A stretch of 64,000 bases of DNA, from NCBI GenBank assembly GCA_964612995.1, contig CAZTGE010000002.1, forward strand, positions 337 to 64,336. The letters run 5' to 3'. The first letter of the stretch is position 1. Each line of letters begins with the position of its first letter. Origin of the DNA: an uncultured candidatus Brocadiaceae bacterium. GTDB taxonomy: Bacteria > Planctomycetota > UBA11346. Made by a program: the position numbers and the translations under genes. The notes below the pieces were generated by a model. The model saw only the letters and a list, made by a program, of their open reading frames with translations, was not told the DNA's origin and did not search any database. This document shows positions 18,540 through 56,700 of this stretch, piece after piece.

Positions 18540-20768
18540 TCATTCGCCCGCTGGCACCGAGCGCCGCCGCAGTTTGAAGGCGAGATGATGGCGGAACGGC
18601 GGAGGCCGCAGGACCAGTTCGCCGCCGGGATGGTCGATCTCGTCGCGTTCCCGGATGCGCCCTGAATCGGCATCCCACCACTCGACCTGCATCGCCCCGG
18701 CCGCGATCTGCGTGCCGACCCTCACCGTCGCCTCGCGGTGGAGCGCGTCGGCCTTGCCCGCGTAGCCCCAGCGCCGGGCGAGGATGTACCCGAGCATGTC
18801 GCCCGGCGCGAACCAGGCGTTGATCCACAACTCACCGGCACTGCTCCGGCCCGTGAGCGGTAGTGAGCGTTTGGCCTGGCCGCGCAGGTCTTCGCCAGCG
18901 AGGAACCGGGCCACCGCCGCGTAGGGGCCGTAGCGCTCGTTCTGGTCGACCCATTCGAACCACCACAGCATCGGGGTGCCGCCATGGCCCGAGGTGATCG
19001 CGGCCCAGGGGCCCGAGCGGTGTTCGGCGATCAGCTGCGGCTCGGGGCAGGCCTTGGAGCTGCCGCCGTACTCGGTCACCAGCACCGGTTTGCCGAAGCG
19101 GGCGAGTCCGGCGCCGGAATGCTGTGTGCTGTCGCGCAGCAGTTGCGCGAGGAGTTTGCCGCGATCGCGGCGGCGGCCGTGGTAGGCATCGATGCACACG
19201 TAATCGATCTGCGGCAGCCGGACGATCGTGCGGTCGGGGCTGCGGAAGTCGCCGGCCCAGTGGGTGGTCACCGGGTGGTCGTAGACATCGAGCGCATGCC
19301 AGCGCTCGCTGGCATGCCGGTGCCATTCACGCAGATGGCTGCCACCGGCAGTGAGGTTGATCTCGCTCCACAGCTTCCACCCCAGGATCGCCGGATGGTC
19401 GGCGTAGCGGGCGATGAGGTAGCGGCGGTACTGTTCCTGCTTGGCCAGGGCGAAGGGGCGGTGGAACAGGGCCGTGGCCGAGCGGAACGGACCACCATTG
19501 CGCTTGTTGTACGGGCTGTTCTGCCATTCGCGATCGACCCGTTCGCTGCCCATGCCGTGGTTGTGGATGACCAGGTTGACGCGCACGCCGTGGGCGTAGG
19601 CCTGATCGAGGATGCGATCGAGCCGTTGGGCGTTGGGTTGGTGATAGCGGCCGATGCCGTGGAAGTGCGGCCAGTCGTCGCGCCACTCCAGGGCCAGATT
19701 CCAGGAGCACATCCAGATCTCGGTCGCGTTGCCGCCGGCGGCGGCGAGGCGCGCGAGGTAGGCGGCGTAGGAATGGCTGCGCAGGTCCGGCGTCTCCCGC
19801 TTGATCGGTGTGCATCGGGCGCCGCGCGGATCGTTGACCGAGCGGATGTTCAGCCCGATCGGGTAATAGAAGCGTTCGCCGCCGGGACCGACGCCGAAGA
19901 ACCGCGGGTCGCGCGCATCCACGCGCACGTAGTCGTCCCAGGGGGCACCGGTCACCTGCAGGGGTGGCAGCGCGAGCGTCACGCGGCGTTCGTCGGCCAG
20001 CCCCTGGTTCCAGATTCCCACCAGTTCGATGGTATGGCGGCCCGGTAGCCGCGCTCGGTAGCGCACGGCGAAGCGGCCCTGGCCGCGGGGGATCGCCGCC
20101 TCGTGGTCGCCGGCGGGCTGCAGGTCCATCTCCTGGAGGAAGAAGCCGTCGATGGTGTGGACGCTGCCTCCCGGTGTGCGGATGTTCGCCAGGAGGCGGA
20201 AGCGCTCGTGGTCGTAGGGGTTGCTCGGGAATGGCGCGGGCACGCATTCCAGCTGCCAGCGGCGCCCGGTCTCGATCGCTCCGGTGGGCAGGTCCAGATC
20301 GAGCAGTCGCGGCCGGGTCGTTGCCTCGTTGGCCGCGGCGCGCGGGCGCGCGGTGAACGCGATCCGGGCGCGGGTCTCTTCGGCCGTGGCGAAGATCAGG
20401 CCGAGGCGTTGACTCAGGGCATAGCGGTAGGGGGTCCAGGCCGCGCTGTGCCCGGCGCTCGACATCCGGCTGCTCGCACCTGCCGCGACCTCCAGCACCA
20501 CCTGGTGACGGCCCGGGCCGAAGGTCTCGGGATGCATGGACTGGAACCAGTGGCCCTCCTGGTCGGTCACCCAGGCGCCGACCCGCAGGTCGCGCGGAGC
20601 GTCGTCTGGCACGCTCAAGGTGAGGTCGATCACCGCCAGGGCATCGGGCAGTTCCCAGCTGGCGATGGTCACCGGGGTGCTCAGTGGCCCACGCAGGCTG
20701 ACCGTGCGCTCGCCGCCGGTGGCGACGCTGCCGATGATCGCCAGCAGGACCAGACTCGCGGCGCGCAT
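18540..20768 (-). CDS. Secreted clan GH-A (GH5-like/DUF4038-type) glycoside hydrolase-like protein with an N-terminal beta-sandwich domain. It is paralog 1.
   Basis: The 1287-aa ORF was trimmed to the ATG at M546 (MRAASLVLLAIIGSVATG, a signal peptide), giving 742 aa. TIM-barrel motifs are NHG, WSEINL (acid/base) and VLVTEYGG (nucleophile). It is homologous to 32859..35210. Confidence 0.6.
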   Translation of the reverse strand: MRAASLVLLAIIGSVATGGERTVSLRGPLSTPVTIASWELPDALAVIDLTLSVPDDAPRDLRVGAWVTDQEGHWFQSMHPETFGPGRHQVVLEVAAGASSRMSSAGHSAAWTPYRYALSQRLGLIFATAEETRARIAFTARPRAAANEATTRPRLLDLDLPTGAIETGRRWQLECVPAPFPSNPYDHERFRLLANIRTPGGSVHTIDGFFLQEMDLQPAGDHEAAIPRGQGRFAVRYRARLPGRHTIELVGIWNQGLADERRVTLALPPLQVTGAPWDDYVRVDARDPRFFGVGPGGERFYYPIGLNIRSVNDPRGARCTPIKRETPDLRSHSYAAYLARLAAAGGNATEIWMCSWNLALEWRDDWPHFHGIGRYHQPNAQRLDRILDQAYAHGVRVNLVIHNHGMGSERVDREWQNSPYNKRNGGPFRSATALFHRPFALAKQEQYRRYLIARYADHPAILGWKLWSEINLTAGGSHLREWHRHASERWHALDVYDHPVTTHWAGDFRSPDRTIVRLPQIDYVCIDAYHGRRRDRGKLLAQLLRDSTQHSGAGLARFGKPVLVTEYGGSSKACPEPQLIAEHRSGPWAAITSGHGGTPMLWWFEWVDQNERYGPYAAVARFLAGEDLRGQAKRSLPLTGRSSAGELWINAWFAPGDMLGYILARRWGYAGKADALHREATVRVGTQIAAGAMQVEWWDADSGRIRERDEIDHPGGELVLRPPPFRHHLAFKLRRRSVPAGE

Positions 20769-20875
20769 GGTAGGGAGTGTCGGCGCCCAGGTCGGGGGGG
20801 CAACGTGCTGCCGGGGCATGCCCGGTTGTACGCCTGCGCCTGCGATCCGCTGAGGCTCGCACCAGCCGCAGGGCG

Positions 20876-20992
20876 ACTCAGAGCTCGCAAATGAGGGCCC
20901 CTGCCTCGCCTCCATCTGCGTCACTATGGCCCAGGCACCAAAGAGAGCGGGGCGGTTGGACGCAGGTGGAGGCGACGCAAGGCATGGAAACA
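20876..20992 (+). repeat. Copy B of the conserved intergenic element of about 115 nt. It carries a 16-bp stem with one G-U pair.
   Basis: It aligns with 2216..2330 at about 90% identity. The stem pairs cgcctccatctgcgtc with gacgcaggtggaggcg. Confidence 0.5.
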
Positions 20993-20993
20993 G

Positions 20994-21041
20994 GGGGTCA
21001 CAACATGGGACCATCACTCGATGGTCCCATGTTGTGACCCC
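20994..21041. other. Perfect 19-bp hairpin with a 10-nt loop, located between copy B and the kinase start.
   Basis: The arm ggggtcacaacatgggacc, loop atcactcgat and arm ggtcccatgttgtgacccc were read directly. Confidence 0.65.
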
Positions 21042-21122
21042 GTCATCCCTGGCTTTGAGCAGCCCTGGGCACCAGCCGTTCCCGTCGCTTGTCTGGCTGC
21101 GTGTGCGGGTCAGGATCGGACC

Positions 21123-22973
21123 ATGACCGCGGTATCTGCAGGCGGGGTGACGATCGATGCGCTCTGCGCCCTGGCGCGTCAGCAGGGGTTGCGCGATGCC
21201 GCGGCCCTGGAGCGGCTGGCCGAGGTCGCTCGTCGCGCCGGGGTCGATTCGCCGGCCACCATGCGCGCGTTCATCCTCGGCTCGGACATGCTCGGCGACG
21301 CCTTGCGTCGCGCGCTGACCCAGGCCCTGCCGCCGCGTGACGATCTGCGCTATGGCGCGATCACCATCGCCGGCCACCTCGCGGTCGGTGGCATGGGCGA
21401 TGTCTGGCTCGGGACGACGCCCGACGGCGCGCTGTGTGTGGTCAAGACCATCCGGCCGGACGTGGCGAATCCCGACTTCATCCGCCGCTTCGATCGCGAG
21501 GTGCGGCTCACCGCCCGTATCCGCAGCCCGCACGTGGTCCGTTGCATCGATTTCGGCATCGCTGGCGAGCGGTCCTATCTCGCGCTCGAGCACGTCGCCG
21601 GCGGTGATCTGCACCACCTGATCCGGCAGCACGGCCGGTTGAACGAGACCGAGGCGGTCTCGCTCGCGATCCAGATCGCCCGGGGGCTGCACGCGGCGCA
21701 CGCCTGCGATCTGGTCCATCGCGATCTCAAGCCGAAGAACGTGTTCATCACCGCCGCGGGCGTGGCCAAGCTCGGCGACTTCGGTCTCGCGCGCAGCACC
21801 TCGCAGCAGCGCACCATGTTGACGATGACCGGGACCACCGTCGGCACGCCGGCCTACATGTCGCCCGAACAGGTGCGCGGTCACGACGATCTCGATATCC
21901 GCACCGACATCTACGCGCTCGGGGTGGTGCTCTACGAATGCCTGATCGGCCGGCCGCCCTTCGCCGGTGGGCAGGCCGTGGTGTTGCGTGCGCATCTGTC
22001 GCAAGCGGTGGGCGATGTGCGCAGTCTGCGCCCCGAGCTGAGCGAGCGCGTGGCCCGCACGATTATCAAGTGCATGGCCAAGGAGCCCGGCCGCCGCTTC
22101 TCGAGTCCATCGCGGCTGGTCCACAGCCTCGAGCAGACCCTGCGCAGCTGTGCGCACGACGACGCCACGCTCGCGCCGGGAGTGGCCGCCGCGGCCGTGC
22201 CCGACGCCACGCTCTCCGGGGGCGAGGTGGTGGCCCGCGGCGCATCTCCGCCGCCGGTGGCGCCGGTCTTGCGACAGGGCTCGCCAGCCGGGATCGATCC
22301 GATGGCCCGCACCGCCACTGTGGCCGCGCCCGCTGCCGCCGGATACAGCGGCGATTGGCTGGTGCTCTGCGGCAGCGGGGCACTGGCCGGGCAGCTGATC
22401 CACTGCTTCGCGCGCTCGCGCCTGCTATTCGGCAAGAAGCGCAGCGAACCGGTCGACGTCTGCCTGCGGGTCTACCCGATCGCCGAGCACGATGCCGCCT
22501 GCCGTCGCATCAGTCGACAGCACTTCGAGCTCGCGTGGGATCCTGCGAACGGGGAGCTGCGTTGCAGCGATTGCGGCAGCGCCAACGGCACCACGCTCGA
22601 TGGTCAGGTCCTGCGCCGGTCCAGCTGTGTGCTGCAACCCGGCGGCCATCGCCTGAGCGTGCCGAGCTCGATCGCGCTCACCCTCGCGTGCCGACAGCCA
22701 GAGCACGTGATGCTCACCCGCGAAGGCAACCGCCCCTCGCTGGCCTACGTCATGGTCCTGCATCGGTTCACCATCGGCGGTCCGCTCGCCGATCTGGCCC
22801 TGCCGGCGGGCGGTGCGGGGCTGCCGATGCTCGAACTCGAACAGGTCGATGGCCGCTGGCGGTGGCGCCTCGATCGCTCCCAGCCCTGGGCACCGCTCGC
22901 GCTCGGCCAGGATTGGGAGTCCGCCGGGCTGCCCCTGCAGGCGGTCGCGGGGAGCCATGACCACTTTGTCTGA
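21123..22973 (+). CDS. Hanks-type Ser/Thr protein kinase with a C-terminal FHA domain.
   Basis: Kinase motifs are GGMGDVWLG, VVKTI, HRDLKPKNVF, DFGLAR and YMSPEQ. The C-terminal FHA-like segment is RRISRQHFELAWDPANGELRCSDCGSANGTTLDGQVL. The start is placed at the ATG at M35, downstream of the hairpin. Confidence 0.75.
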   Translation: MTAVSAGGVTIDALCALARQQGLRDAAALERLAEVARRAGVDSPATMRAFILGSDMLGDALRRALTQALPPRDDLRYGAITIAGHLAVGGMGDVWLGTTPDGALCVVKTIRPDVANPDFIRRFDREVRLTARIRSPHVVRCIDFGIAGERSYLALEHVAGGDLHHLIRQHGRLNETEAVSLAIQIARGLHAAHACDLVHRDLKPKNVFITAAGVAKLGDFGLARSTSQQRTMLTMTGTTVGTPAYMSPEQVRGHDDLDIRTDIYALGVVLYECLIGRPPFAGGQAVVLRAHLSQAVGDVRSLRPELSERVARTIIKCMAKEPGRRFSSPSRLVHSLEQTLRSCAHDDATLAPGVAAAAVPDATLSGGEVVARGASPPPVAPVLRQGSPAGIDPMARTATVAAPAAAGYSGDWLVLCGSGALAGQLIHCFARSRLLFGKKRSEPVDVCLRVYPIAEHDAACRRISRQHFELAWDPANGELRCSDCGSANGTTLDGQVLRRSSCVLQPGGHRLSVPSSIALTLACRQPEHVMLTREGNRPSLAYVMVLHRFTIGGPLADLALPAGGAGLPMLELEQVDGRWRWRLDRSQPWAPLALGQDWESAGLPLQAVAGSHDHFV

Positions 22974-32858: not shown

Positions 32859-35210
32859 TCAGCCTTCGCCCGCGCCCGGCGCCGCCGTGTCCGTGTCGTC
32901 CTGCCGCAGCAGCTTGAAGGCGAGATGGCGGCGGAAGGTGGGGATTGCGAGCGCGAGCTCGCCGCCGGGGTGTTGCCAGGAGTGCTGGGAGAGCATGGTG
33001 CCGGCCTCTGCATCCCACCATTCCACCGTCATTGCGCCGGAGCCGATGTTGGTGCCGATCACGCAGCGCCCGTCGCGCAACGGCGGGGCCGCGCCGCCGC
33101 TGCGCCCCCAGCGTTCGTCGAGCAGATAGCCGAGGATGCGTCCCGGCCGGCACCACAATTGGGCCCAGACCGGTCGGTCGGCGATGGTGAGATCGAGATG
33201 GACCGCTCGCGCCGTGCTGCTCGGATGGCTGCGCAGGTCCTCGCCGGTGAGGAAGGCCGCTAGCGCGCGATAGGGGGCCCAGCGGCCCCCCTGGTCGACC
33301 CATTCGAACCACCACAGCATCGGTCCGCCGCCGTAGCCTGAAGTCAGCGCGGCCCAGGGCCCGGAACGGTGTTCCGCGATCAGTTGCGGTTCGGGGCAGG
33401 CGTTCCAGTTGCCGCCGTACTCGGTCACCAGCACCGGTTTGCCATGACGGGCGAGTCCGGCACCGGGCTCGAGCGTGCCTTGCCACAGCAACTGCGCCAG
33501 CAGGATGCCTTCACCGCCACCGCCGCCGTGGTAGGCGTCGATGCAGACATAGTCGAGCCCCGCGTCGCCGTCGATCGCGACCAGGCTCCGGTCGGGCGTG
33601 CGGTAGTTGCCCGACCAGTGGCTGGTGACCGGATGCCCATAGGGATCGAGCGCATGCCAGCGGCGACAGGCCTGGGCATGCCAGTCGCGTAGTTCAGCGC
33701 GACCGGCACCGGTAAGATTCATCTCGCTCCACAGCTTCCAGCCGAGGATCGCCGGGTGATCGGCGTAGCGCGCGATGATGTAGCGCCGCAGCCGCTCCTG
33801 CCCGGCGAGTGCGCGTGCGTCGGTGAAGAAATCACTGGTCGAGGCGATCGGGCCGGGGGCGACAGGATCGGCATCGGGGCTCTGGCGCAGCTTGGCGTTC
33901 CAGGGATTGTCGGCCCATTCGGCGTCGGTCTTGTGCGAGCCCTGGCCGTGGTTGCGGATGACCAGATTCACCCGTACGCCCCGCCGCCAGCAGTGATCGA
34001 GCAGGGCGTCGAGGCGTTCGGCGTTGGCTTGGTTGTAGCGTCCGATGCCGTGGTAGCCCGGCCAGTCGGCGCGCCACTCCAGGGCCAGGTTCCAACTCGC
34101 CATCCATACCTCGATCGCGTTGCCGCCGTTGGCGGCGAAACGATCGATGTAGGCGCGGTAGGCGTACATGCCACGGTCGGGCGTGATGCGCGAATCGGTG
34201 CGTCTGGCCCCGCGCAGGTCCCAGGTCGAACGCAGGTTGAGGCCGATCGGCCAGTAGAAGCGGGTGGTCCCGGTGGCCTGGCCGGTGCTGAAAAACCGCG
34301 GATCGGCGGTGTCGACGCGGACGTAGTCGTCCCAGATCGCCCCGGTGACGGTGATTGGCGGCAGCGGTAGTCGCACCGTGGTCTGCTGGTTCCAGCACGC
34401 TTCGAGCCGGGCGGTGTACTGGCCGGGGCGGCGGGGGCGCCAGCGCAGCTCGAAGTGCCCGGGCGCCGAGGCCGTGGCGACCTCGGTGTCGCCACGGTCG
34501 TGGAAGCTGTGCGGTTCGCGGTAGAAGCCGGCGATGGTCTCCGTCGGCCCCCCGTCCTGGTGGGTGAACACCGCCTGCAGCGTGAACCGCTCGCGGTGAT
34601 GCGGCAGGTGGGGGGACGGCTGGGGGATACAGGTGAGCGTCCAGCGTTCGCCGGTGGCGATGGCGACGCGCCCGTCGGCGAGGTTCCGCAACTGCAGATC
34701 CGCCAGGCGGTGGTCGGCCGGAGCAGGGATCGCGCGCTTGCCGGTGACCTGCAGTTCGCTGACCGTCACCCGGGCGTCGGATCCGCTGGAGCTCCAGAAG
34801 AACAGCCCGGCGCCATGGGTCAGCGCCGCCGCGGTGGCCGACCAGCCGCCGTGATGGTCCACGGCCTGGAGCGGCTGCTCTGCGATCGGGAAGACCAGCC
34901 GGTGCTCGCCCGGGTTCAACGGCTGCGGATGCACGGACTCGAACCGCTTGCCGTGGCGGTCGACCAGATACGCGCCGGCGCCGAGGTCCGCCGGCGCTCC
35001 GGCGGGGATGCGTACGGTGGCGCGGATGCTCGCTGGCTGCTCGGGAAGCGGATCGGTGCAGGGGACCATCGTGTTCAGCGGCGCACGCAGTTGCACGCTG
35101 CGCGCCGCCTCGGCGCCGGGCAGGGCCGCGCAGAGTGCGAGCAGCAGCGCGCAGGCCGCCGGTATGCGGCGTCGGATCAAGCAGGGGCGCAGGGAGGTCG
35201 GGTCCGGCAT
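32859..35210 (-). CDS. Secreted clan GH-A (GH5-like/DUF4038-type) glycoside hydrolase-like protein, paralog 2.
   Basis: The signal peptide is IPAACALLLALCAALPGAEA. The motifs IRNHGQG, WSEMNL and VLVTEYGG are present. The gene lies 127 bp upstream of nusA on the same strand. Confidence 0.6.
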   Translation of the reverse strand: MPDPTSLRPCLIRRRIPAACALLLALCAALPGAEAARSVQLRAPLNTMVPCTDPLPEQPASIRATVRIPAGAPADLGAGAYLVDRHGKRFESVHPQPLNPGEHRLVFPIAEQPLQAVDHHGGWSATAAALTHGAGLFFWSSSGSDARVTVSELQVTGKRAIPAPADHRLADLQLRNLADGRVAIATGERWTLTCIPQPSPHLPHHRERFTLQAVFTHQDGGPTETIAGFYREPHSFHDRGDTEVATASAPGHFELRWRPRRPGQYTARLEACWNQQTTVRLPLPPITVTGAIWDDYVRVDTADPRFFSTGQATGTTRFYWPIGLNLRSTWDLRGARRTDSRITPDRGMYAYRAYIDRFAANGGNAIEVWMASWNLALEWRADWPGYHGIGRYNQANAERLDALLDHCWRRGVRVNLVIRNHGQGSHKTDAEWADNPWNAKLRQSPDADPVAPGPIASTSDFFTDARALAGQERLRRYIIARYADHPAILGWKLWSEMNLTGAGRAELRDWHAQACRRWHALDPYGHPVTSHWSGNYRTPDRSLVAIDGDAGLDYVCIDAYHGGGGGEGILLAQLLWQGTLEPGAGLARHGKPVLVTEYGGNWNACPEPQLIAEHRSGPWAALTSGYGGGPMLWWFEWVDQGGRWAPYRALAAFLTGEDLRSHPSSTARAVHLDLTIADRPVWAQLWCRPGRILGYLLDERWGRSGGAAPPLRDGRCVIGTNIGSGAMTVEWWDAEAGTMLSQHSWQHPGGELALAIPTFRRHLAFKLLRQDDTDTAAPGAGEG

Positions 35211-39392: not shown

Positions 39393-40235
39393 ATGCGCTG
39401 GATGTCCATTTTGTTGCTCACGCCCCTGCTGCTGTTGGCGGCCTTCGCCCCAGTGACGGCTGAAGAGGGCTCCGGCGGGGCCGAGGCCGCTGCTGGCGCA
39501 GCGGCCGAGGAGGACGCCGCGACGGGTCCCCAGAACATCACGGCCGACTCGGAGGCCGAAGAGGAGGCCTTGACCGCCGCTGAGCGCAAAGAGAAGCTCA
39601 ACGAAGGCAATGCTTTCATTCAGCAGATCAAGAACGGCGGCGTGCCGATGGGCTTCCTCATCGCATTGGCGGTGGTCGGCGTGGTCATCATCATCGAGCG
39701 CCTCGCCCGGCTCAATCGCGGCAACATCGCCCCGCCGGAACTGGCTGAGCGGGCTGACGAGATGTGGTCCGCCGGCGACACCGATGGCGTGAAGCAGCTG
39801 GCCGAGAGCGACAACAGCGCGCTGGGTCGGGTGATCGCCTTCCTCGCCGAGAACAAGGACGCCGACTACATCGCGCTCAACGAAGGCGCCGGCGAGGTCG
39901 CCGCGCGTGAAATCCAGAAGCAACAGCAGATGAACTACTGGCTGGCCGTGGTCGCCACCATCTCGCCGCTGCTGGGTCTGCTGGGTACGGTGCTCGGTAT
40001 GATCTCGGCCTTCAAGACGGTGGCTGTGGCCGGCGATATCGGCGACACCTCGATGGTCGCCGAGGGCATCTACATGGCGCTCTCGACCACCGCTGCCGGT
40101 CTGATCATCGCCATCCCCACCCTCGGCTTCTTCCATTATCTCAAAGGCCGCGCCAGCCAGCTCGCACTCGAGCTCGAGGACACCAGCAACCGGCTGATCC
40201 TCAAGTGGTTCGGCAAGGCCAAGGGGGCCGCCTGA
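39393..40235 (+). CDS. exbB: MotA/TolQ/ExbB proton-channel protein with a cleavable signal peptide and an Ala/Glu-rich periplasmic N-terminal extension.
   Basis: The ATG at M109 of ORF 39069.. has GGGAGAAAC upstream. The signal peptide is MRWMSILLLTPLLLLAAFAPVTA. The MotA_ExbB core motif is YWLAVVATISPLLGLLGTVLGMISAF. Confidence 0.8.
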   Translation: MRWMSILLLTPLLLLAAFAPVTAEEGSGGAEAAAGAAAEEDAATGPQNITADSEAEEEALTAAERKEKLNEGNAFIQQIKNGGVPMGFLIALAVVGVVIIIERLARLNRGNIAPPELAERADEMWSAGDTDGVKQLAESDNSALGRVIAFLAENKDADYIALNEGAGEVAAREIQKQQQMNYWLAVVATISPLLGLLGTVLGMISAFKTVAVAGDIGDTSMVAEGIYMALSTTAAGLIIAIPTLGFFHYLKGRASQLALELEDTSNRLILKWFGKAKGAA

Positions 40236-40236
40236 G

Positions 40237-40713
40237 ATGCGGAGCAACCGCGAACCGGACCAGACGCCATTGATCATGATGGAACCGATGATCGACGTCG
40301 TGTTCCTGCTGCTGATCTTCTTCCTCGTCTCGGCCACCATCCGCAAGAAGCACAGCGAACTGCCGCTGGAGCTGCCGCACCTGACCCACGCCGAGACCGA
40401 GAAGGATCCGGACAATACGGTGGTGGTGAGCATCATGCCCACCAGCGGTGGCGGTGGCGGTGGCGGGGTCCACTACCGCTGCACCACCGTGGGCGAGGCG
40501 CTGCGCTCCACCGGCGGCGCCCGTGAGGACGTGACGCTGCAGGAACTGATCACCAAGCTACGGGTCGCGGCCAGGCAGAAACCCGGTCGCAAGGTGCGTA
40601 TCGACGCCGACAGCGCGGTGCCCTATCACATAGTCAGCCAGGTGATCGATCACTGCGAGCTCTATCGTCTGACAACCATCGGTCTGCGGACCCACGACAA
40701 CTTCAGCAGCTGA
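40237..40713 (+). CDS. exbD: ExbD/TolR biopolymer transport protein, copy 1.
   Basis: The TM segment is IMMEPMIDVVFLLLIFFLVSATI. A periplasmic domain follows. The start is 2 nt after the exbB stop. Confidence 0.8.
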   Translation: MRSNREPDQTPLIMMEPMIDVVFLLLIFFLVSATIRKKHSELPLELPHLTHAETEKDPDNTVVVSIMPTSGGGGGGGVHYRCTTVGEALRSTGGAREDVTLQELITKLRVAARQKPGRKVRIDADSAVPYHIVSQVIDHCELYRLTTIGLRTHDNFSS

Positions 40714-40750
40714 ATCGGGGCCGGGCCCGGCCCGGCGCGGAGACAACGCC

Positions 40751-41221
40751 ATGCGCAGCAAGCACAAGGAAGACGAGTCGCCCGGCATCATGATGGAGCC
40801 GATGATCGACTGCGTCTTCCTGCTCCTGATCTTCTTTCTGGTCGCCGCGACCATCCGCAAGAAGCACAAGGAGATCCCCGTCGACCTGCCGACCTTCGGC
40901 AATACTGCCGAGGCACCGGTCGGGGAAGCGGACAAGCCACCGCTGTACCTGCGGGTCAGCGGTATCGAGGCCGACGACACCGGTCGGGTCACCGACGTAG
41001 GCCTGTTCCTGCGCGAGGGCGTGGCCGTCGGTGAGCTCGGACCGGGGCGTCAGGTCGGTTATCACGATCTGGCCGGCGAGATCGGTCCGCAGCGCCCGGT
41101 ATTCATAGAGGTCTTCGGCGATGTCCGGTACGGTCACGTGATGAAGATCATCGGTCTGCTCCAACTCCATGACCACAAGGTGCTCGGGCTGCGGGTGGCC
41201 AACCCCCACAACCCGGCCTGA
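40751..41221 (+). CDS. exbD: ExbD/TolR biopolymer transport protein, copy 2.
   Basis: The TM segment is IMMEPMIDCVFLLLIFFLVAATI and the C-terminal region contains FIEVFGDVRYGHVMKIIGLL. Confidence 0.8.
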   Translation: MRSKHKEDESPGIMMEPMIDCVFLLLIFFLVAATIRKKHKEIPVDLPTFGNTAEAPVGEADKPPLYLRVSGIEADDTGRVTDVGLFLREGVAVGELGPGRQVGYHDLAGEIGPQRPVFIEVFGDVRYGHVMKIIGLLQLHDHKVLGLRVANPHNPA

Positions 41222-41241
41222 ATGGAACGAAGGGACGCACC

Positions 41242-42534
41242 ATGGTAGCACACTCCAAGAACTACAGCGGCCTGCTGATGCCCCTGGCCGTGGTCGCGGT
41301 CAGCGCCCTGGTCATCTGGGGTTTCGGCGGCGGCGATGGCTCCGGCTTCGCCATCTCGGCCGGCGACATCGATGACATCGTCAAGCGTATCCGCGACACC
41401 ACCCGCGAACGGTGGCTCGAGAAGACGCGCGACCTGATCAGCATGACGCGGCGGATCGACCAGATCCGCGACAAACGCTTCGCCGATATCCGTGAGGGGG
41501 TGCAGGGCGAGAGCTACCTCGAGCGCTTCATCCAGCTCGCGCGTGAGAAGCACGCGCCGATCGACGCCGGACTGTACGAGCGGATCGACGAACCCGGCGT
41601 GCCGCTGTCGGTGGTCTTCGAGGCGACCAAGGCGGCCGAGCTGCAGCTGACCAACAGCTATCGCGATATCCGCGGCGCGCTCAACGCCATCCGGCTCGAG
41701 GTGCCGGCGATCGACGCCATCGGCTGGGTCAAGGTGGTCCAGCCACGACGGATCACGCTCGCGGCCGACGGGATCGATAACGACTCCGTCCGCAGTCAGG
41801 ATGCGCTCGAGACCTTCAAGCACGAGGTCAACCGCGGCGCGTCCGAGATCGACGCCATGCTGCAGCACGCTGAGAAGATCGTCGAGAAGGCCGAGGAGGC
41901 CGACGAGGGCGGCGGCGGCGGCGCCGGCGTTCCAATGATCAGTGATACCGGTTTCGGCAGTACGCGCGGCGCGACCCTGCGTCCGGACGAGCTCTTCGAA
42001 TCGCGTAGCACATCCGATGGCGGCTTCGACGCCCGCCCTGGCCGGGTGGTGGCCGACGACGGCCGGCGCCAGGACTGGATGTACGTCGACAAGTGGTACG
42101 TCATGGGCCCGTTCGAGAACCGCTTCCGCTCCAACCTCGATGCCTCCTTCCTGCCCGAGACGGTGGTCGATCTCGACAACGTCACCCTGGGCAAGGACGA
42201 CCGCGAGATCGGCTGGAAATACTGGGACTGCAAGGCCCAGCGGATCGAGCCGAGCTGGGCCCCGCGTGGCTGCATCTACTACGGCTGGACCGAAGTCTAC
42301 ATGGAGGACGCCGCCAAGTACTGGGTCGCGCTGGGCAGCGACGACTACGGCAAGGTGTGGATCAACGGCAAGGAGGTCTGGAAGTCGGACACGGTGCCCA
42401 AGCCCTACCGCGCCGACGAGCATGTGGCCGAATTCGAGTTCAAGCAGGGCGTCAACGAAATCCTGTTCCGCTGCGAGAACAACGGTGGCACCATGGGCTG
42501 GTCGATGGTGATCTGCACCATGGCCAACCAGTAG
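41242..42534 (+). CDS. Bitopic inner-membrane protein (paralog A): an N-terminal TM anchor, a helical periplasmic region, a Gly-rich linker and a C-terminal jelly-roll domain of about 150 aa (GH2-N/PA14-like).
   Basis: The TM segment is SGLLMPLAVVAVSALVIWGF. The C-terminal domain is DWMYVDKWYVMGPFEN...DDYGKVWINGKEVWKSD...ILFRCENNGGTMGWSM. The RBS context is GAAGGGAC. The start lies 21 nt after exbD2. Confidence 0.6.
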   Translation: MVAHSKNYSGLLMPLAVVAVSALVIWGFGGGDGSGFAISAGDIDDIVKRIRDTTRERWLEKTRDLISMTRRIDQIRDKRFADIREGVQGESYLERFIQLAREKHAPIDAGLYERIDEPGVPLSVVFEATKAAELQLTNSYRDIRGALNAIRLEVPAIDAIGWVKVVQPRRITLAADGIDNDSVRSQDALETFKHEVNRGASEIDAMLQHAEKIVEKAEEADEGGGGGAGVPMISDTGFGSTRGATLRPDELFESRSTSDGGFDARPGRVVADDGRRQDWMYVDKWYVMGPFENRFRSNLDASFLPETVVDLDNVTLGKDDREIGWKYWDCKAQRIEPSWAPRGCIYYGWTEVYMEDAAKYWVALGSDDYGKVWINGKEVWKSDTVPKPYRADEHVAEFEFKQGVNEILFRCENNGGTMGWSMVICTMANQ

Positions 42535-42629
42535 CGCGACGTTGCTGGCCGGCGCGATCGCGCGACACCCGGATCAGGCGCGGCCGAACGCCTTCATCAC
42601 GGCCTGAATCTCCGTACGAAGGGACGTCC

Positions 42630-43925
42630 ATGGCAACCAGCTCGAACAACCACAGTGGGCTGTTGATGCCCCTGGCGGTTGTCACGGTCAGCGCCTTGGT
42701 CATCTGGGGCTTCAGCGGCGGCGACAGCTCCGGGTTCGCCATCTCGCCGGGCGACATCGACGAGGTCGTCAAACGTATCCGCGACACCAAGCGCGAACAG
42801 TGGCTCGCGCAGACCCACGATCTGATCGGCATGACGCGGCGGATCGACCAGGTCCGGGACAAGCGCTTCGCCGAGATCCGTGAGGGGGCACAGGGCGAGA
42901 GCTACCTGGAGCATTTCATCCAGCTCGCGCGCGAGAAGCATGCCCCCGTCGAGGCCGGGCTGTTCGAGCGCATCGACGATCCCGACGTGCCGCTGTCGGT
43001 GGTGTTCGAGGCGGCCAAGGCGGCAGAGCTGCATCTGACCAACAGCTACCGCGACATCCGCGGGGCGCTCACCGCCATCCGGCTCGAGGTGCCAGCGATC
43101 GATGCCATCCGCTGGATCAAGGTGGTCCGGCCACGGCGGATCACACTCGTGGCTGGCGACATCGACAGCGACTCGATCCGTGGGCAGGATGCGCTCGAGG
43201 CCTTCAAGCACGAAGTCAACCGCGGCGCGTCCGAAATCGACGCCATGCTGCAACACGCAGAGAAGATCGTCGAGAAGGCCGAGGCGGTCGACCGGCACGG
43301 TGGCGGTGGCGACCATGTCCCGCTGATCAGCGAAGCCGGTTTCGACAGCACGCGCGGCCCGACCCTGCGCCCGGACGAGACCACCAGTGCACATCGCGGC
43401 ACCGCCGACGGTGGCTTCGACGCCCGCCCCGGCCGGGTGGTGGCTGACGACGGCCGGCGCCAAGACTGGATGTACGTCGACAAGTGGTACGTCATGGGCC
43501 CGTTCGAGAACCGCTTCCGCTCCAACCTCGATGCCTCCTTCCTGCCCGAGACGGTGGTCGATCTCGACAACGTCACCCTGGGCAAGGACGACCGCGAGAT
43601 CGGCTGGAAATACTGGGACTGCAAGGCCCAGCGGATCGAGCCGAGCTGGGCCCCGCGTGGCTGCATCTACTACGGCTGGACCGAAGTCTACATGGAGGAC
43701 GCCGCCAAGTACTGGGTCGCGCTGGGCAGCGACGACTACGGCAAGGTGTGGATCAACGGCAAGGAGGTCTGGAAGTCCGATACGGTGCCCAAGCCTTACC
43801 GCGCCGACGAGTACGTGGGCGAATTCGAATTCAGACAGGGCGCCAACGAGGTCCTGTTCCGCTGTGAGAACAACGGCGGTACCATGGGGTGGTCGATGGT
43901 AATCTGCACCATGGCCAGCCAGTAA
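42630..43925 (+). CDS. Bitopic inner-membrane protein (paralog B), about 88% identical to paralog A.
   Basis: The ATG at 42630 has the same GAAGGGAC RBS context. The architecture is the same as paralog A. A 314-nt tract is identical to paralog A. Confidence 0.6.
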   Translation: MATSSNNHSGLLMPLAVVTVSALVIWGFSGGDSSGFAISPGDIDEVVKRIRDTKREQWLAQTHDLIGMTRRIDQVRDKRFAEIREGAQGESYLEHFIQLAREKHAPVEAGLFERIDDPDVPLSVVFEAAKAAELHLTNSYRDIRGALTAIRLEVPAIDAIRWIKVVRPRRITLVAGDIDSDSIRGQDALEAFKHEVNRGASEIDAMLQHAEKIVEKAEAVDRHGGGGDHVPLISEAGFDSTRGPTLRPDETTSAHRGTADGGFDARPGRVVADDGRRQDWMYVDKWYVMGPFENRFRSNLDASFLPETVVDLDNVTLGKDDREIGWKYWDCKAQRIEPSWAPRGCIYYGWTEVYMEDAAKYWVALGSDDYGKVWINGKEVWKSDTVPKPYRADEYVGEFEFRQGANEVLFRCENNGGTMGWSMVICTMASQ

Positions 43926-44023
43926 TCCGTATCGCGTCCGGTCCGCGCATGGGCACCGTTCACTCCGCCCCGTGTTGCGCGATCGTTCGCGCGTTTTCAA
44001 CGACCACGGTTCCGGGAGGACCC

Positions 44024-46444
44024 ATGCTTCGTCATCATCTCGCCATCGGCATCCTCTGTATCGCCGCCAGCCTGCCCGGCGCGGACGGGCCACTCGCCCA
44101 CACCGCAGCCCTGCGAGTATGGCAGGATCTGCCCTCGGAGTTCCTGATCGAACTCAACCGCACCCTCGACGACGAACAACGACTGGCGTGGTACGTCGAC
44201 CCGGCGAGCGAGACCGCGGCCTACCCCGGCGCCACCCTGCCCGATGAGACCCGCAGCCTTGCAGATCACATAGAGCGCTACTGCGAGCAGGCCGGCCTGG
44301 AGTGGAAGCACGACGGCCGGGCACTGTGGCTCTATCGCCCGATGGCAGAAGCCGAGCAGAACGCACTCATCGAGCGGTTCCGCACCGGCGAGGAGGACGC
44401 ACGCGTCGCCGCTCGCAACGCGCTGTTGGCGCATCCCACGCCGGCGGGGATCGAAGCGCTGTTGCTCGCGCTCGGCGGCGAGGATGCCACCGCGGCACGG
44501 CTCGCGCACGAGGGGATCTACTCGCTGCTCGGCGCGAGCAACGAGTGGGTCGGCAGCGACATCCGCCTCGCCTTCAAGCTGTTCTCGGATCCCAACCGGG
44601 TGCTCAACACCCTCGCCGGTTTCTCGCAGACCGATACCGACCTGCCCGCGCCCTGGGCGATGTTCGAGATCGTCGGCCGCGACCCGACGGTGCGCACCGC
44701 GATCGAGGCCGCCGTCGCCGCGCGCGATGGCGATCAGGCTGGGCGCGACCTCGGCCTGGCGGTGGTCGCCGCTGCGGCGCGGGTCGCATCGGGCGCCGAT
44801 CTGCTCGCGTGGTGGCAGCAGCACCCCGGTGGCGACTGGCAGTGGCGCTACGTGCGTGGGCGAGCGCTCAACGCTGCGCGGTGGGCCGGCTATATCGATG
44901 CCGCCGAAGTCGTTGATCCGGCAGCGGTCGCCAAGGCCTTCGATAACGCGATGGGTGCGGTGCCGGCGATCGACGATCAGCTCTCCGAGCGCAAGCTCGA
45001 CAAGCAGACCCGCAGAGACCTCGAAGATCGGGTCGATGCGCTCTTCAGCGCGATCAAGGCCACCGCCGCTCCGGCGGTGGCGCGCAAGCTCGCCGCGGTG
45101 GCGGCCAACGCGGAGTTGCACCAGCAGATCCGTCAGGCCGCGCTCGCGGCCCTGCACGGTGTCGACGACACGGCGACGATGGAGCGGCTGGTCGCGCTGC
45201 GCAGCACGGTCGAGGACCGCCAGCTGGCCAAGGCGATCGATCGCACCCTCGCCGCCTCGGACAGCCCGGTGGCGATCGCTGATCTGAGCCAGCGTGCCCT
45301 GGCACAGATCCAGGCCACCAACACGGCCTGGCGTGCGAAGAGCGATGCGATCGCCGAGAAGCGCAAGACGGCGGAATCCTTGGGCGAGGCCGGGGAGCTG
45401 GCACCGCCGCAGCGCAAGCAGCTCAAGCAGCTGGGCAAGGACATCGATCATCTCAACAACGACATGCAGAAGCTGCTCAAGGAGGCGCGCGAGACGGTGC
45501 AGGAGCTCGGCGAGCTGCGCGGCACGGCCGCGGTCACCGCGCTGGGTACGGTGCTGGTCGACGCGCAGATGCATCAGGAACTGCGCAAGAGCGCCGCCGA
45601 GGCGCTGATCGTCAAGCGCGATCCGGCGATGGTCGAGCCGCTGATCGCCGCCTTCACCGACGATGAATGGGCCGCGGTGCGCAAGGTCGCGGCCGAGGCG
45701 CTCGGCCGCTGTCGCCAGCCGGAGGCGATCGCCGCACTGCGTTCGGGCCTGACCGGGGCCAAGAGCCCGCTGACGCGTCAGGCCGCCGCCCGTGGGCTGG
45801 CCATGTCGCGCCACCCGGAGGCCTACGCCCTGATCAAGCAGCGCCTCTCCACGGCCGGGACCTCGCGCGAACGGATCATGCTGATCCTGTCGCTGGCGGC
45901 CACGCGCGATCCGGCCGCACTGGAGACCCTGACCGGTATCCTCCAGGACGCCACCGCGGCCCTCGACGACCGCCTGGGTGCCGCGCGCGCGCTGGCGCTG
46001 ATTCCGACCCAGGGCGCCCGCGACGCCCTGACCGGGATTATGGCCGGCGATCAGCCGATTGAGCTCAAACGCATGACCCTGGACAGCCTCAAGCCGATGA
46101 GCAAGGCCGACGTGCCGGTGTTCGCTCCGATCCTGCTCGAGGTCCTGGCCGCACGGCCGCAGGGCGAGCTGCTGGTCATGGCGGTCGAGAATCTGCGCCG
46201 CTGCATGTTCGGCCTGCCTGGTGGCGATCCGATCAAGGCCGAGATCGAGGCCGCGATCCTCGACCTGATCGCCGGATCGGACAACAACAACGCGCGCAAG
46301 GCCGCGCTCAATGTGTTCAAATACAGCGACGATCCCGCGGGTGTGGTCGCGCGTCTGGAGACGGTGGCGCAGCGGGAACGCAATCCGGTGATGCGCTCCT
46401 TCCTCAACCGGGCGGTCGCCCAGCTCAAGGCGACGGGGCAGTGA
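44024..46444 (+). CDS. Secreted HEAT/PBS-lyase-repeat protein (806 aa).
   Basis: The ATG at 44024 has GGGAGGA upstream. The signal peptide is MLRHHLAIGILCIAASLPGADG. Repeated helical-repeat units of the form PEAIAALRSGLTGAKSPLTRQAAARGLAM are present. The stop is adjacent to the convergent hisS. Confidence 0.6.
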   Translation: MLRHHLAIGILCIAASLPGADGPLAHTAALRVWQDLPSEFLIELNRTLDDEQRLAWYVDPASETAAYPGATLPDETRSLADHIERYCEQAGLEWKHDGRALWLYRPMAEAEQNALIERFRTGEEDARVAARNALLAHPTPAGIEALLLALGGEDATAARLAHEGIYSLLGASNEWVGSDIRLAFKLFSDPNRVLNTLAGFSQTDTDLPAPWAMFEIVGRDPTVRTAIEAAVAARDGDQAGRDLGLAVVAAAARVASGADLLAWWQQHPGGDWQWRYVRGRALNAARWAGYIDAAEVVDPAAVAKAFDNAMGAVPAIDDQLSERKLDKQTRRDLEDRVDALFSAIKATAAPAVARKLAAVAANAELHQQIRQAALAALHGVDDTATMERLVALRSTVEDRQLAKAIDRTLAASDSPVAIADLSQRALAQIQATNTAWRAKSDAIAEKRKTAESLGEAGELAPPQRKQLKQLGKDIDHLNNDMQKLLKEARETVQELGELRGTAAVTALGTVLVDAQMHQELRKSAAEALIVKRDPAMVEPLIAAFTDDEWAAVRKVAAEALGRCRQPEAIAALRSGLTGAKSPLTRQAAARGLAMSRHPEAYALIKQRLSTAGTSRERIMLILSLAATRDPAALETLTGILQDATAALDDRLGAARALALIPTQGARDALTGIMAGDQPIELKRMTLDSLKPMSKADVPVFAPILLEVLAARPQGELLVMAVENLRRCMFGLPGGDPIKAEIEAAILDLIAGSDNNNARKAALNVFKYSDDPAGVVARLETVAQRERNPVMRSFLNRAVAQLKATGQ

Positions 46445-47725
46445 TCAGACCGTGGTGAGCGCGAGTTCCTCCTCGTCGCGCTCGCCGACCCGGCGGCGTT
46501 TGCACATCCCGCGCGCGAGTTCGTCGTCGCCGATGATGTAACAGTATTCTGCGCGGTCCTGCTCGGCGGCCTTGATCACGTGCTTGAAGCGACGGCAGGA
46601 GTAGTCGACCACCACCCGCCGGCCGCGCGCGCGCAGCGTGGCGGCGATGCGGTTGGCCGCGAGGAACTGCGCTTGCTGCATCGGGAATACCACATCATCG
46701 ACAGCCCGCGCGGGCGCGGGCAGCAGTCCATGCTCCGCGAGCAGGTCGAGAATCACCACGTCACCGAAGCCGAAGCCGACCATCGGCACAGCCCGCCCGC
46801 CGAGGGTCGCCATCAGCGCATCGTAGCGTCCGCCGCCGGCGATCGCGCGCATCGAGCCGCTGGTCGCGAACAGCTCCCAGACCACGCCGGTGTAGTAGGA
46901 CAGGCCGCGGACCACCGAGAGGTCGATCTCCAGCAGGTGGCCGAAGCCAGCCGCCGCGGCCAGCTCGCCGAGTTCGCGCAGCTCGTCGATTCCCGGCAGC
47001 TCGTCGCCCAACCGGGCGACGAGCGCATCGAGCCCGCGCAGCTCGAGCAGGTCGAGCACCCGCTCGGTGGTGGGCGTGGCAACGCCGGTGGCCACCAGCT
47101 GCTCGGCGGTGGCGTCGCGGCCGATCTTGTCGCGCTTGTCGATGATCACGCAAACGGCGGCGAAATCCTCGCCGGTCACGCCTTCGCGTTCGAGCACGCC
47201 CTGGAGGATGCGGCGGTTGGATACCCGGATGCGTACAGCCGGGTCGCCGTCGAGGTCCAGCCCGGTGCGGCGGAGGAAAGCGATCTGGGCCGCCATCAGC
47301 TCGGCCTCGGCGGCGACGTGGGCCAGGCCGACCACGTCCATGTTCCATTGGAAGTGCTCGCGCTTGCGCCCCTTCTGCATCCGCTCGTAACGGAAACACT
47401 GGGGGATGGCGTACCAGCGTAGTGGCAGCGCGAGCGAGCCCGCACGCGCCATGACCATCCGCGCGAGGCTCGGGGTCATCTCCGGGCGCAATGCCACCTG
47501 ACGCCCGCCCTTGTCGGTGAAATTGTACAGTTGGCCGGTGATCTCGTCACCCGCTTTGCGGGTGTAGAGCTCCTCGTGTTCGAGGACGCAGGCATCGTAT
47601 TCGACGTAGCCGAACGCGGCCGCGACCTCGCGCCACTGCGCGAACAGCCAGCTGCGCACGGCCAGGTCTTCGGGATAGAAATCGCGGGTGCCCTTGACCG
47701 CTTGGGTGCTGATGCCCTCGCCCAT
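46445..47725 (-). CDS. hisS: Histidine--tRNA ligase.
   Basis: Class II motifs are VKGTRDFYPED, LRPEMTPSLARM and RWYAIPQCFRYER. The ORF was trimmed to M25. Confidence 0.9.
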   Translation of the reverse strand: MGEGISTQAVKGTRDFYPEDLAVRSWLFAQWREVAAAFGYVEYDACVLEHEELYTRKAGDEITGQLYNFTDKGGRQVALRPEMTPSLARMVMARAGSLALPLRWYAIPQCFRYERMQKGRKREHFQWNMDVVGLAHVAAEAELMAAQIAFLRRTGLDLDGDPAVRIRVSNRRILQGVLEREGVTGEDFAAVCVIIDKRDKIGRDATAEQLVATGVATPTTERVLDLLELRGLDALVARLGDELPGIDELRELGELAAAAGFGHLLEIDLSVVRGLSYYTGVVWELFATSGSMRAIAGGGRYDALMATLGGRAVPMVGFGFGDVVILDLLAEHGLLPAPARAVDDVVFPMQQAQFLAANRIAATLRARGRRVVVDYSCRRFKHVIKAAEQDRAEYCYIIGDDELARGMCKRRRVGERDEEELALTTV

Positions 47726-47874
47726 GGCGCGTCTCCCTCTGCTGTGGCCGGCGTCTGGCGCCGGCGCAGCATCCTCATCGCGCACGCAGGCGGGCAAGCG
47801 GTTGTCGGCCGGGCGCGATGGGCTCTGGCCTATCGTGGCCTGGCCGCTAGCTTGCAGCCCGTATCGGAGGACCT

Positions 47875-49185
47875 ATGGCTGATCTGCGGGTGTGCAAGTT
47901 CGGAGGAACCTCGGTGGCGACGGCCGAGCGTCTGCGTGCGGTGCAGGCGATCTGTGACGCTGAACCGGCGCGGCGGGTGGTGGTGCCCTCGGCGCCGGGC
48001 AAGGCCCACTGCGATGACACCAAGGTCACCGATCTGCTCTACCTCGCGCATGAGCTGGCGAGCAAGCAGCAGCCCTTCGACACCATATGGCGCCAGATCG
48101 AAGCCCGCTTCACCGGTCTTGTCGTTGACCTCGGTCTCGATCTGGACCTGGGTCCGGTGCTCGACGAGATCCGTGAGGCCATCGCCGGCGGAGCCAGCGC
48201 CGCCTACGCCGCCAGCCGCGGGGAGGCGGTCAACGGCCGCATCGTCGCGGCCTTGCTCGGCGCGCGCTATGTCGACGCGGCAGATGTGATCCGCTTCGGC
48301 GCTGCCGGGCGGGTCGCCCCGGCCACCTTCGGCCTGGTGCGCGAGGCCTGCGCCGGCACAGAGCGCGTCGTGATCCCCGGTTTCTACGGCAGCGATCGCC
48401 ACGGGCGGGTGCGTACCTTCACCCGCGGCGGCAGCGATGTCACTGGCGCGGTGATCGCCGCCGCGATCGATGCCACGCTCTACGAGAACTGGACCGACGT
48501 GCCGGGCGTGCTGGCCACCGATCCGCGCATCGTCACCAGTGCGCGGCCGATCACCGAGATCACCTACGACGAGCTGCGCGAGCTCGCCTACATGGGCGCC
48601 AACGTGCTGCACGAGGAGGCGGTGTTCCCGGTGCGGGACAAAGGCATCCCCATCAACATCCGCAGCACCGGCGAGCCCGAGCACCCGGGCACGGTGATCG
48701 TCGCCGATCGCGACGTCGGCGATCAGGTGGTCGTCGGCATCGCTGGTCGGGCGGGTTTCACCGTATTCCAGTTCCACAAGCCGATGATGAACAGCGAGGT
48801 CGGCTTCGGCCGCCGGGTGCTCGACGTGTTCGAGCGCTTCGGCATCAGCTACGAGCACACCCCGACGGGGATCGACACCATGTCGGTGGTGGTCGCGGAT
48901 GAGACGCTGGGCGAGGACCGCGAGGAGCAGATCCTCGAGGACCTGCGCGCGGCGGTGAAGACCGACGATATCACCCTGTTGCCGGGCATGGCGCTGATCG
49001 CCACGGTGGGCAAGGGCATGAACCACAACGTCGGCGTCGCCGGGCGCCTGTTCAGCGCGCTGGGCAAGGCGGCGGTCAACGTGCGGATGATCGATCAGGG
49101 TTCCTCGGAGCAGAACATCATCGTCGGGGTCGACGCCGCCGATCTGCCCAAGGCGATCCAGGCGATCTACGAGGAATTCGCCTGA
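47875..49185 (+). CDS. lysC: Aspartate kinase.
   Basis: The N-terminal MADLRVCKFGGTSVATAERL is followed by an amino-acid kinase fold with C-terminal ACT domains. Confidence 0.8.
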   Translation: MADLRVCKFGGTSVATAERLRAVQAICDAEPARRVVVPSAPGKAHCDDTKVTDLLYLAHELASKQQPFDTIWRQIEARFTGLVVDLGLDLDLGPVLDEIREAIAGGASAAYAASRGEAVNGRIVAALLGARYVDAADVIRFGAAGRVAPATFGLVREACAGTERVVIPGFYGSDRHGRVRTFTRGGSDVTGAVIAAAIDATLYENWTDVPGVLATDPRIVTSARPITEITYDELRELAYMGANVLHEEAVFPVRDKGIPINIRSTGEPEHPGTVIVADRDVGDQVVVGIAGRAGFTVFQFHKPMMNSEVGFGRRVLDVFERFGISYEHTPTGIDTMSVVVADETLGEDREEQILEDLRAAVKTDDITLLPGMALIATVGKGMNHNVGVAGRLFSALGKAAVNVRMIDQGSSEQNIIVGVDAADLPKAIQAIYEEFA

Positions 49186-49195
49186 CCCGTCGGTC

Positions 49196-52193: not shown

Positions 52194-52298
52194 CCCAGAT
52201 TCTAACGCCGAGCCAACCATGTTCGTTTGCTCGTTTCGACACGATCGTCGATCGCTGCGTCAGTCAGGAGGCCGCAGGGCCGGCCACGCTGCGCCCTG

Positions 52299-56647: not shown

Positions 56648-56700
56648 CGGCGGGGGTGCGGCCTTGCCCCGGTGGCGCCGGCGCCCACCCTGCCGCCGCG

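Follow-up and report, generated by a model that had tools for sequence, protein, structure and literature searches.

How two adjacent genes that differ along most of their length came to share several hundred identical nucleotides (nt) is the question raised by paralogs A and B of an uncultured candidatus Brocadiaceae bacterium. Both genes lie in a 64,000-nt stretch of contig CAZTGE010000002.1 (assembly GCA_964612995.1; positions 337 to 64,336 of the forward strand), which was analysed as a whole and is called the window below. A sequence-only reading of this stretch had attributed the shared segment to gene conversion. Our results indicate that the segment, a 314-nt tract in the part of each gene encoding the C-terminal domain, was very probably homogenised by gene conversion between A and B after the split from the lineage of L001 (GCA_041641915.1), a related genome whose version of this operon is about 88% identical in nucleotide sequence.

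The identical tract and its boundaries

The two genes were aligned with MAFFT over 1296 columns, 149 of which differed between A and B, including one 3-nt insertion-deletion. The longest uninterrupted run of identity was 314 nt, and the runner-up was 25 nt. Mismatches closed the run on both sides (A 42072 with B 43463, and A 42387 with B 43778), bearing out the earlier claim of an identical tract of about 314 nt as one single run. Its position in A had been given correctly as 42073..42386, and the one proposed for B (43463..43776) was one base too low, the true one being 43464..43777. An even spread of the differences, with no identical tract in a proper alignment, had been named as grounds for abandoning the proposal; the tract was found and the differences were not evenly spread. 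Outside the tract, codons 1-255 were 84.4% identical and the 3' end 88%, consistent with the previous estimate of about 85-90%. BLAST of the tract against the whole 64-kb window returned no third copy.

The length of the run was not reproduced by chance. When the positions of the differences were shuffled 20,000 times, the longest run never exceeded 123 nt (analytic bound about 6e-18), and with third codon positions only, the observed run of 104 compared with a shuffle maximum of 67 (bound about 5e-10). A GENECONV-style test, which used the sites polymorphic among four sequences, gave 31 consecutive sites concordant between the window copies of A and B (W_A and W_B); 5,000 permutations reached 15 at most (p<2e-4).

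The sequence next to the tract was clearly more divergent. On the 5' side lies the region encoding a Gly-rich linker, which holds the insertion-deletion and where the differences reach 38 per 120 nt; on the 3' side we counted about 16 per 120 nt. What was found is a sharply bounded tract of high identity, the form that gene conversion is expected to leave. The ends were also visible in the Logan assemblies of public runs, which were built with k=31 and broke exactly 30 nt (k-1) inside both tract ends: contigs L087 and L088 stopped at window position 42102 and L090 corresponded to 42357..43493. These breaks confirm the tract boundaries in other samples and do not address the identity of the interior. 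At the protein level the tract covers residues 278-382, inside a beta-sandwich of residues 262-430 (approximate limits) and comprising most of its strands. The earlier description of the tract as encoding the core of a jelly-roll domain was a fair one, the best matching folds being PA14, CBM35/CBM6 and GH2.

Silent-site divergence and phylogeny of the tract

Synonymous (pS) and non-synonymous (pN) divergence was estimated by NG86 for the window paralogs and for those of L001 (L1_A and L1_B). Apart from the boundary codon, A and B had no difference over about 62 synonymous sites of the tract, whereas outside it pS was 0.31 (0.30-0.375 in the flanks) and pN was 0.096. Because silent sites were homogenised as well, selection at the protein level cannot explain the run.

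Between species the tract evolved normally. The comparison of W_A with L1_A gave a pS of 0.32 in the tract and 0.30 in the region encoding the stalk, with third-position identities of 0.81 and 0.77, respectively. Within the tract, W_A and W_B differed from the L001 copies at 21-25 nt (21 sites against L1_A and 25 against L1_B). This normal silent-site rate shows that there is no constraint at the nucleotide level. Moreover, the two L001 paralogs were 17 nt and 5 residues apart in the tract, so the perfect identity is specific to the lineage of the window. A tract identical across species, which would have spoken against conversion and for extreme purifying selection, was therefore not what we observed.

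Neighbour-joining trees, rooted with the more distant homologs L005-L007, changed topology between the tract and the rest of the gene. In the tract tree W_A and W_B grouped together with 100% bootstrap, as did L1_A and L1_B with 64%, whereas in the tree of codons 1-255 W_A joined L1_A and L1_B in a clade supported at 100% and W_B fell outside. The distance between paralogs in the tract was 0% in the window and 5.4% in L001, and the distances between orthologs were 6.7-8.0%; the paralogs were thus closer to each other than to their orthologs in the tract and not outside it. Since the in-tract distances between paralogs are smaller than those between orthologs, homogenisation must have taken place after the species split. 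Silent-site identity, normal pS between species and the switch in tree topology together support the reading of the tract as a product of gene conversion.

The L001 pair was also more alike in this segment than elsewhere (pS of 0.159 in the tract vs 0.261 in the stalk), and its pS was lowered in the 3' end too. Another candidate tract of that pair, with 13 concordant polymorphic sites and a permutation p of 0.012, spans alignment columns 545-605 (about 5605-5670 and 6995-7060 in L001). These features suggest separate, older conversion events in the L001 lineage, and the A/B gene pair appears to undergo recurrent, patchy concerted evolution.

Proposed course of the conversion

Very probably, one paralog received a segment no longer than 314 nt from the other by non-reciprocal copying once the lineages of the window and of L001 had separated. 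The pathway may have been RecA-type homologous recombination or repair between the direct repeats, on the same or on a sister chromosome, involving either correction of a heteroduplex or synthesis-dependent copying. The event would probably have started in the most conserved segment of the region encoding the C-terminal beta-sandwich, which offers the longest runs of perfect match; the copies are most alike there because of strong purifying selection on the protein. It would probably have stopped where divergence rises, that is, in the Gly-rich linker on the 5' side and, on the 3' side, where about 16 of every 120 nt differ. We infer that no selection is needed to explain the conversion.

The process itself is ordinary, and A and B are a new instance of a well-known one. 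As a textbook example of tandem bacterial paralogs in partial concerted evolution they are clean and statistically strong, but they leave existing knowledge unchanged.

Two tract haplotypes in one near-clonal population

Several observations weigh against perfect identity of the two copies, or limit what can be read from it. All the sequences come from metagenome assemblies, for which typical k-mers and reads are shorter than a repeat of 314 nt. A second assembly of the same population (GCA_048615975.1, L002; 3,798 nt) was identical to window 40491..44288 except for 16 mismatches, and these were the same 8 linked single-nucleotide polymorphisms (SNPs) in each tract copy. By comparison, one SNP only was seen in the roughly 27 kb covered by other assemblies, which were made from different samples. 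In addition, L001, which serves as the outgroup, is itself partly homogenised and is uninformative on the donor copy or the direction of the transfer.

We called the tract of the window haplotype X and that of L002 haplotype Y. They are 2.5% apart (97.5% identity), the changes in the order of the sites being C/A, A/G, T/C, T/A, A/G, G/C, C/G and C/G; four of the SNPs are silent and the others give K326R, C344S, D356Q and A358G. Relative to L001, each haplotype has about half of the ancestral states. Codon 356 is the only X/Y site that differs between the two L001 copies, and there X has the GAC of the A type, while the CAG of Y is close to the CAC of the B type. X and Y look like long-separated lineages, most naturally the two paralogs themselves. 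All 8 sites lie at least 72 nt from the nearest A/B-specific difference in the flanks: the first is 72 nt from the last A/B-specific site (42072-42144 in A; 43463-43535 in B) and the last is 73 nt from the next one (42314-42387). X was present in both copies in two assemblies and Y in both copies in one.

The population was otherwise nearly clonal. The contig of GCA_048617035.1 (L003) was identical to the window over 21.3 kb. The roughly 27 kb with a single SNP came from Logan contigs of SRR11308339, SRR19844290 and SRR21542054 and from a further metagenome-assembled genome (MAG), and two more contigs (SRR19844290 and SRR29060565), containing the 3' end of A and the 5' part of B, matched the window exactly. 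The same organism, at 100% or near-100% identity, was thus seen in several MAGs and in four SRA runs (window 40298-59185; L003, L083-L085 and L087-L091); the accession numbers of the runs (SRR11308339, SRR19844290, SRR21542054 and SRR29060565) are widely separated. The clonality may reflect a culture- or reactor-associated strain.

Scanning JGI metagenomes with a 50-nt degenerate pattern of the tract gave 0 matches, a protein search with the 169-aa C-terminal domain returned no partial Logan proteins of the tract interior, and in the literature on the MAG accessions we found nothing giving the assembler or its k. If one tract copy in the real genome is X and the other is Y, their identity is about 97.5% rather than 100% and the conversion is older. 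Identical tracts in the paralogs of MAGs should not be taken at face value: here a single clonal population yielded two assemblies whose only disagreement lies within the repeat and is repeated unchanged in A and B.

Alternative explanations

The occurrence of one haplotype in both copies may be an assembly artefact, in which X in one paralog and Y in the other, differing at 8 sites or more, were merged by short-read de Bruijn assemblers into both; we put the chances of this at about even. A collapsed node used twice is expected to repeat the linked SNPs of L002 in both copies and to leave the X/Y combination in no assembly, as was found. The 2.5% between X and Y, with its four amino acid changes and evenly split ancestral states, is unlike mutation at the strain level in a population with 1 SNP in about 27 kb across samples, codon 356 points to an A-type X and to a Y resembling the B type, and the distance of all 8 sites from the flank differences makes them collapsible in graphs at k of 55 or less. 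However, at k above about 75 each k-mer of the tract holds a copy-distinguishing site and no collapse is expected, the three assemblies are pure X or pure Y without any mosaic even though k=55 would give two separate bubbles, and X is the haplotype of both long contigs (105 and 113 kb). A collapse would modify the conversion rather than replace it, since the tract is still far closer than its flanks: with a distance between paralogs of at most 2.5% in the tract and 12-16% in the flanks, conversion is still required. Whether that distance is 0% or 2.5%, it is below the distance between orthologs, and the conversion must be placed after speciation even if the assemblies collapsed the copies. X/X and Y/Y could also both be real genomes, derived from an X/Y ancestor by two independent, very recent and opposite conversions that founded two sublineages, which would make conversion ongoing, frequent and bidirectional. 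We regard this as rather unlikely. In its favour, A and B share one haplotype in every assembly, the flanks do not differ from one assembly to another, and tandem repeats with a tract already 97.5% identical would be a very good recombination substrate. Against it, two rare events would have had to occur while the 3.2 kb of flanks acquired no further substitution and the rest only about 1 in 27 kb, the presumed ancestor was never observed, and assembler collapse is the more parsimonious account. More doubtful still is the idea of A and B as a two-cassette allele-switching system for a ligand-binding head, a PA14-like cassette of about 0.2-0.3 kb being swapped back and forth. In that event exchange would outpace point mutation within an otherwise clonal planctomycete population, and the two heads would differ at the four residues changed between X and Y.

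Explanations that dispense with conversion, or that add selection to it, fared worse. Extreme purifying selection, or an element embedded at the nucleotide level, could draw on the many columns invariant across 26 homologs and on the low pN of the domain, but synonymous sites of the tract diverge normally between species (pS 0.32; third-position identity 0.81) and the L001 paralogs are 17 nt apart in it, which makes such constraint extremely improbable; with no Rfam match in the window and normal silent-site divergence, an embedded RNA element or other nucleotide-level constraint was rejected. It is also very unlikely that B is a recent duplicate of A whose flanks were replaced from a diverged allele of another lineage, leaving the tract as a remnant. 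The W_B stalk is indeed the most divergent of the four and lies outside the W_A, L1_A and L1_B clade (100%). However, two separate imports would be needed, one on each side of the tract, and the protein search gave no plausible donor sequence; pS between W_B and W_A (0.30) equals that between the window and L001, the excess being non-synonymous (pN 0.131 vs 0.037), which fits faster protein evolution better, and residues H8 and T19, common to W_B and L1_B, indicate an old B lineage. The sequence-only reading had further proposed that natural selection keeps an identical binding module on two differently anchored stalks. The copies do agree with each other in X and Y assemblies alike, but the tandem pairs of L001, L005 and L008 have 5, 17 and 33 amino acid differences in the segment, X and Y are themselves 4 residues apart, so that no particular sequence is preserved, protein selection cannot yield identity at silent sites, and conversion, being mechanical, tends to act on whichever segment is most alike. 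We found no support for such selection and give it very little credence. A target of a diversity-generating retroelement was rejected as well, there being no third tract copy in the 64-kb window and no adenine specificity in the X/Y changes (reverse transcriptase was not searched for). Gene conversion between A and B remains the explanation that we prefer.

Table 1. Positions in the window of the two paralogs, the tract, the haplotype sites and the neighbouring genes
Feature	Position	Strand	Remarks
ExbB/TolQ/MotA-family proton-channel gene	39393..40235	+	First in operon; Pfam PF01618, E=4e-24; called at 8152-8994 in identical contig L003
ExbD/TolR-family gene 1	40237..40713	+	Pfam PF02472, E=1e-21
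ExbD/TolR-family gene 2	40751..41221	+	Heterologous partner of gene 1; Pfam PF02472, E=2e-12
Paralog A	41242..42534	+	Open reading frame (ORF), 1293 nt, 430 aa
Tract copy in A	42073..42386	+	Codons 278-382; alignment, BLAST
X/Y sites in A	42144, 42218, 42267, 42271, 42294, 42307, 42309, 42314	+	Comparison with L002
A-B intergenic spacer	42535..42629	+	Only the last 25-30 nt (approximately), including the ribosome-binding site (GAAGGGAC), common with the region upstream of A
Paralog B	42630..43925	+	ORF, 1296 nt, 431 aa; architecture as in A
Tract copy in B	43464..43777	+	Codons 279-383; alignment, BLAST
X/Y sites in B	43535, 43609, 43658, 43662, 43685, 43698, 43700, 43705	+	Comparison with L002
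HEAT-repeat protein gene	44024..46444	+	Signal-peptide-like N-terminus; Pfam HEAT_2, E=2e-26; synteny in L001 and L005-L008

Architecture and fold of the paralogs

A and B are tandem duplicates (Table 1). The duplicated unit of about 1.39 kb extends from about 25 nt 5' of the start codon to the stop codon. B has one additional codon in the linker relative to A, and its stalk-coding part is 84% identical to that of A at the nucleotide level. Both paralogs are under purifying selection, with a pN/pS of about 0.3 in the stalk.

In the product of A, an N-terminal transmembrane (TM) helix leads into a long helical stalk, which is followed by a Gly-rich linker and, at the C-terminus, by a PA14/CBM-like beta-sandwich. 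A protein search gave 28 full-length homologs of A, and an AlphaFold2 (AF2) model was built from 26 homologs. Its mean predicted local distance difference test (pLDDT) score was 78, with helices at residues 6-28 and 40-222 and strands at 265-428; helix 6-28 is the predicted TM segment, the Gly-rich linker (224-239) is disordered, and across residues 330-430, in the beta-sandwich, pLDDT was about 80-94. When the model was compared with the PDB by Foldseek, the top matches were the PA14 inserts of GH3 and GH31 enzymes (3ac0, 5jou and 2xvk), the MpAFP PA14 domain (6x8a and 5j6y), CBM35 (2wz8 and 2w3j) and CBM6, and sugar-binding domains of GH2 were also found. The PA14/CBM matches had E values of 4e-5 to 1e-3 and a probability of 1.0, with TM-scores kept low by normalisation to the model at full length, and sequence identity to these solved structures was 7-19%. 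The AF2 model and Foldseek together indicate a beta-sandwich of the PA14/CBM type.

Sequence profiles gave little for the same proteins. No family was assigned to A or B by Pfam (E<=0.01) or NCBIfam, and neither reached the gathering score of PA14 (PF07691); weak PA14 matches were present in 12 of 26 relatives, the best with an E of 9e-4. A sequence-profile search of the PDB returned noise only (E of 0.06 or worse). The modelled head has a fold like that of the PA14 (PF07691), CBM6/CBM35 and GH2 jelly rolls, and A and B do not attain the Pfam threshold. The Pfam TonB_C and TolA models did not match A or B, and a fold of the TonB_C/TolA domain III type was not found.

The two types of copy differ in the TM helix. 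B-type copies have H8 and T19, and their S4-H8-L15-T19 has the SHLS spacing of TonB/TolA, whereas A-type copies have Y8 and A19; the split is identical in the window (41242-41325 and 42630-42713) and in L001 (5063-5125 and 6452-6514). The notion of differently anchored stalks has in this a small kernel of truth, since the residues distinguish A from B in both species, but the His is not conserved across the wider family. Judged from these residues, only B might couple to the motor in the TonB manner. B also evolves faster at the protein level: stalk pN was 0.131 for W_B vs L1_B (window 42630-43400 vs L001 6452-7220) and 0.037 for the A copies, with equal stalk pS in the two ortholog pairs (about 0.30).

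Operon context and distribution of the family

Upstream of A are three genes of the ExbB/TolQ and ExbD/TolR families, and a HEAT-repeat gene follows B. A scan for terminators and promoters detected no signal on the + strand between the genes, including the A-B spacer, and A and B are probably co-transcribed with the ExbB-ExbD-ExbD genes and the HEAT-repeat gene. The two ExbD genes go back to an older tandem duplication within this operon; their first 141 nt, which encode the TM segment (40237-40377 and 40751-40891), are 77% identical and the remainder is far more diverged.

An ExbB-ExbD(-ExbD) set was located upstream of the A/B homolog in all 19 related loci inspected, so that adjacency to motor genes was found throughout. 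Loci with this synteny belong to Planctomycetota, Verrucomicrobiota, Kiritimatiellia, Lentisphaerae, Armatimonadota and others, and the downstream HEAT-repeat gene was detectable in the closest relatives only. The A/B family comprised 4,357 cluster representatives at E<=1e-3 (520 at E<=1e-30) and has no Pfam model.

A and B are putative motor-associated envelope proteins with a head of the carbohydrate-binding type. The proteins carrying such heads appear to form a still undescribed, PA14-headed class of envelope proteins coupled to ExbB/ExbD. The family would be a candidate for a further class of motor-driven envelope proteins in bacteria of the Planctomycetes-Verrucomicrobia-Chlamydiae (PVC) group, beside the TonB, TolA and vWA transducers.

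In one relative, GEM2.Bin36, two complete copies of the operon (ExbB-ExbD-ExbD-homolog-HEAT) lie on separate contigs (L006 and L007; REDP01000321.1 and REDP01000262.1) and are about 77-84% identical. Either the whole operon was duplicated or two strains were binned together.

Comparison with known systems

Gene conversion and concerted evolution have reportedly been described for tufA/tufB of Salmonella and E. coli and for rRNA operons, in work said to be that of Abdulkarim and Hughes of 1996 and of Santoyo and Romero of 2005. A and B resemble these systems in the non-reciprocal homogenisation within one genome, silent sites included, in paralogs that are closer than orthologs in the tract, and in a tract of a few hundred nt located in the most conserved part of the gene. 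In contrast, A and B are adjacent tandem copies of an uncharacterised gene of which about one quarter was homogenised, and they are known from metagenome assemblies rather than from isolates. A prokaryote-wide survey of gene conversion is available (PMC6053082).

For the PE/PPE and ESX paralogs of Mycobacterium tuberculosis, conversion is reported to have been resolved with long reads (PMC13061034 and PMC12046097). Short tracts there reportedly leave clustered, linked SNPs on an otherwise clonal background, as in the population studied here, and short-read data are known to misrepresent such regions. The events in M. tuberculosis were reportedly verified on complete long-read genomes, whereas the cluster of 8 SNPs described above is known from unphased assemblies.

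The surroundings of A and B recall another system. Transducers with a vWA head, encoded 3' of tolQ and two heterologous tolR genes, were recently proposed in the PVC group (PMC12204202). A and B likewise follow directly after an ExbB/TolQ gene and two different ExbD/TolR genes, and their topology is that of the TonB, TolA and vWA transducers, in which an N-terminal TM helix is joined by an extended spacer, helical or disordered, to a globular head at the C-terminus. However, the head of A and B is a PA14/CBM-like beta-sandwich, neither TonB_C nor vWA; the SHLS His of TonB/TolA is not conserved in the A/B family, and the coupling of A and B to the motor is putative.

Other features of the window

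Two dispersed paralogous segments, window 18877-19972 and 33226-34366, were 72-77% identical and lie in the minus-strand ORFs 18540..22403 and 32859..35210, respectively; the product of the latter has 783 aa and carries no Pfam annotation. A near-perfect inverted repeat of the hairpin type, whose 45-nt arms show 78% complementarity and are separated by 4 nt, was located at 20971-21064, just upstream of an ORF starting at 21021.

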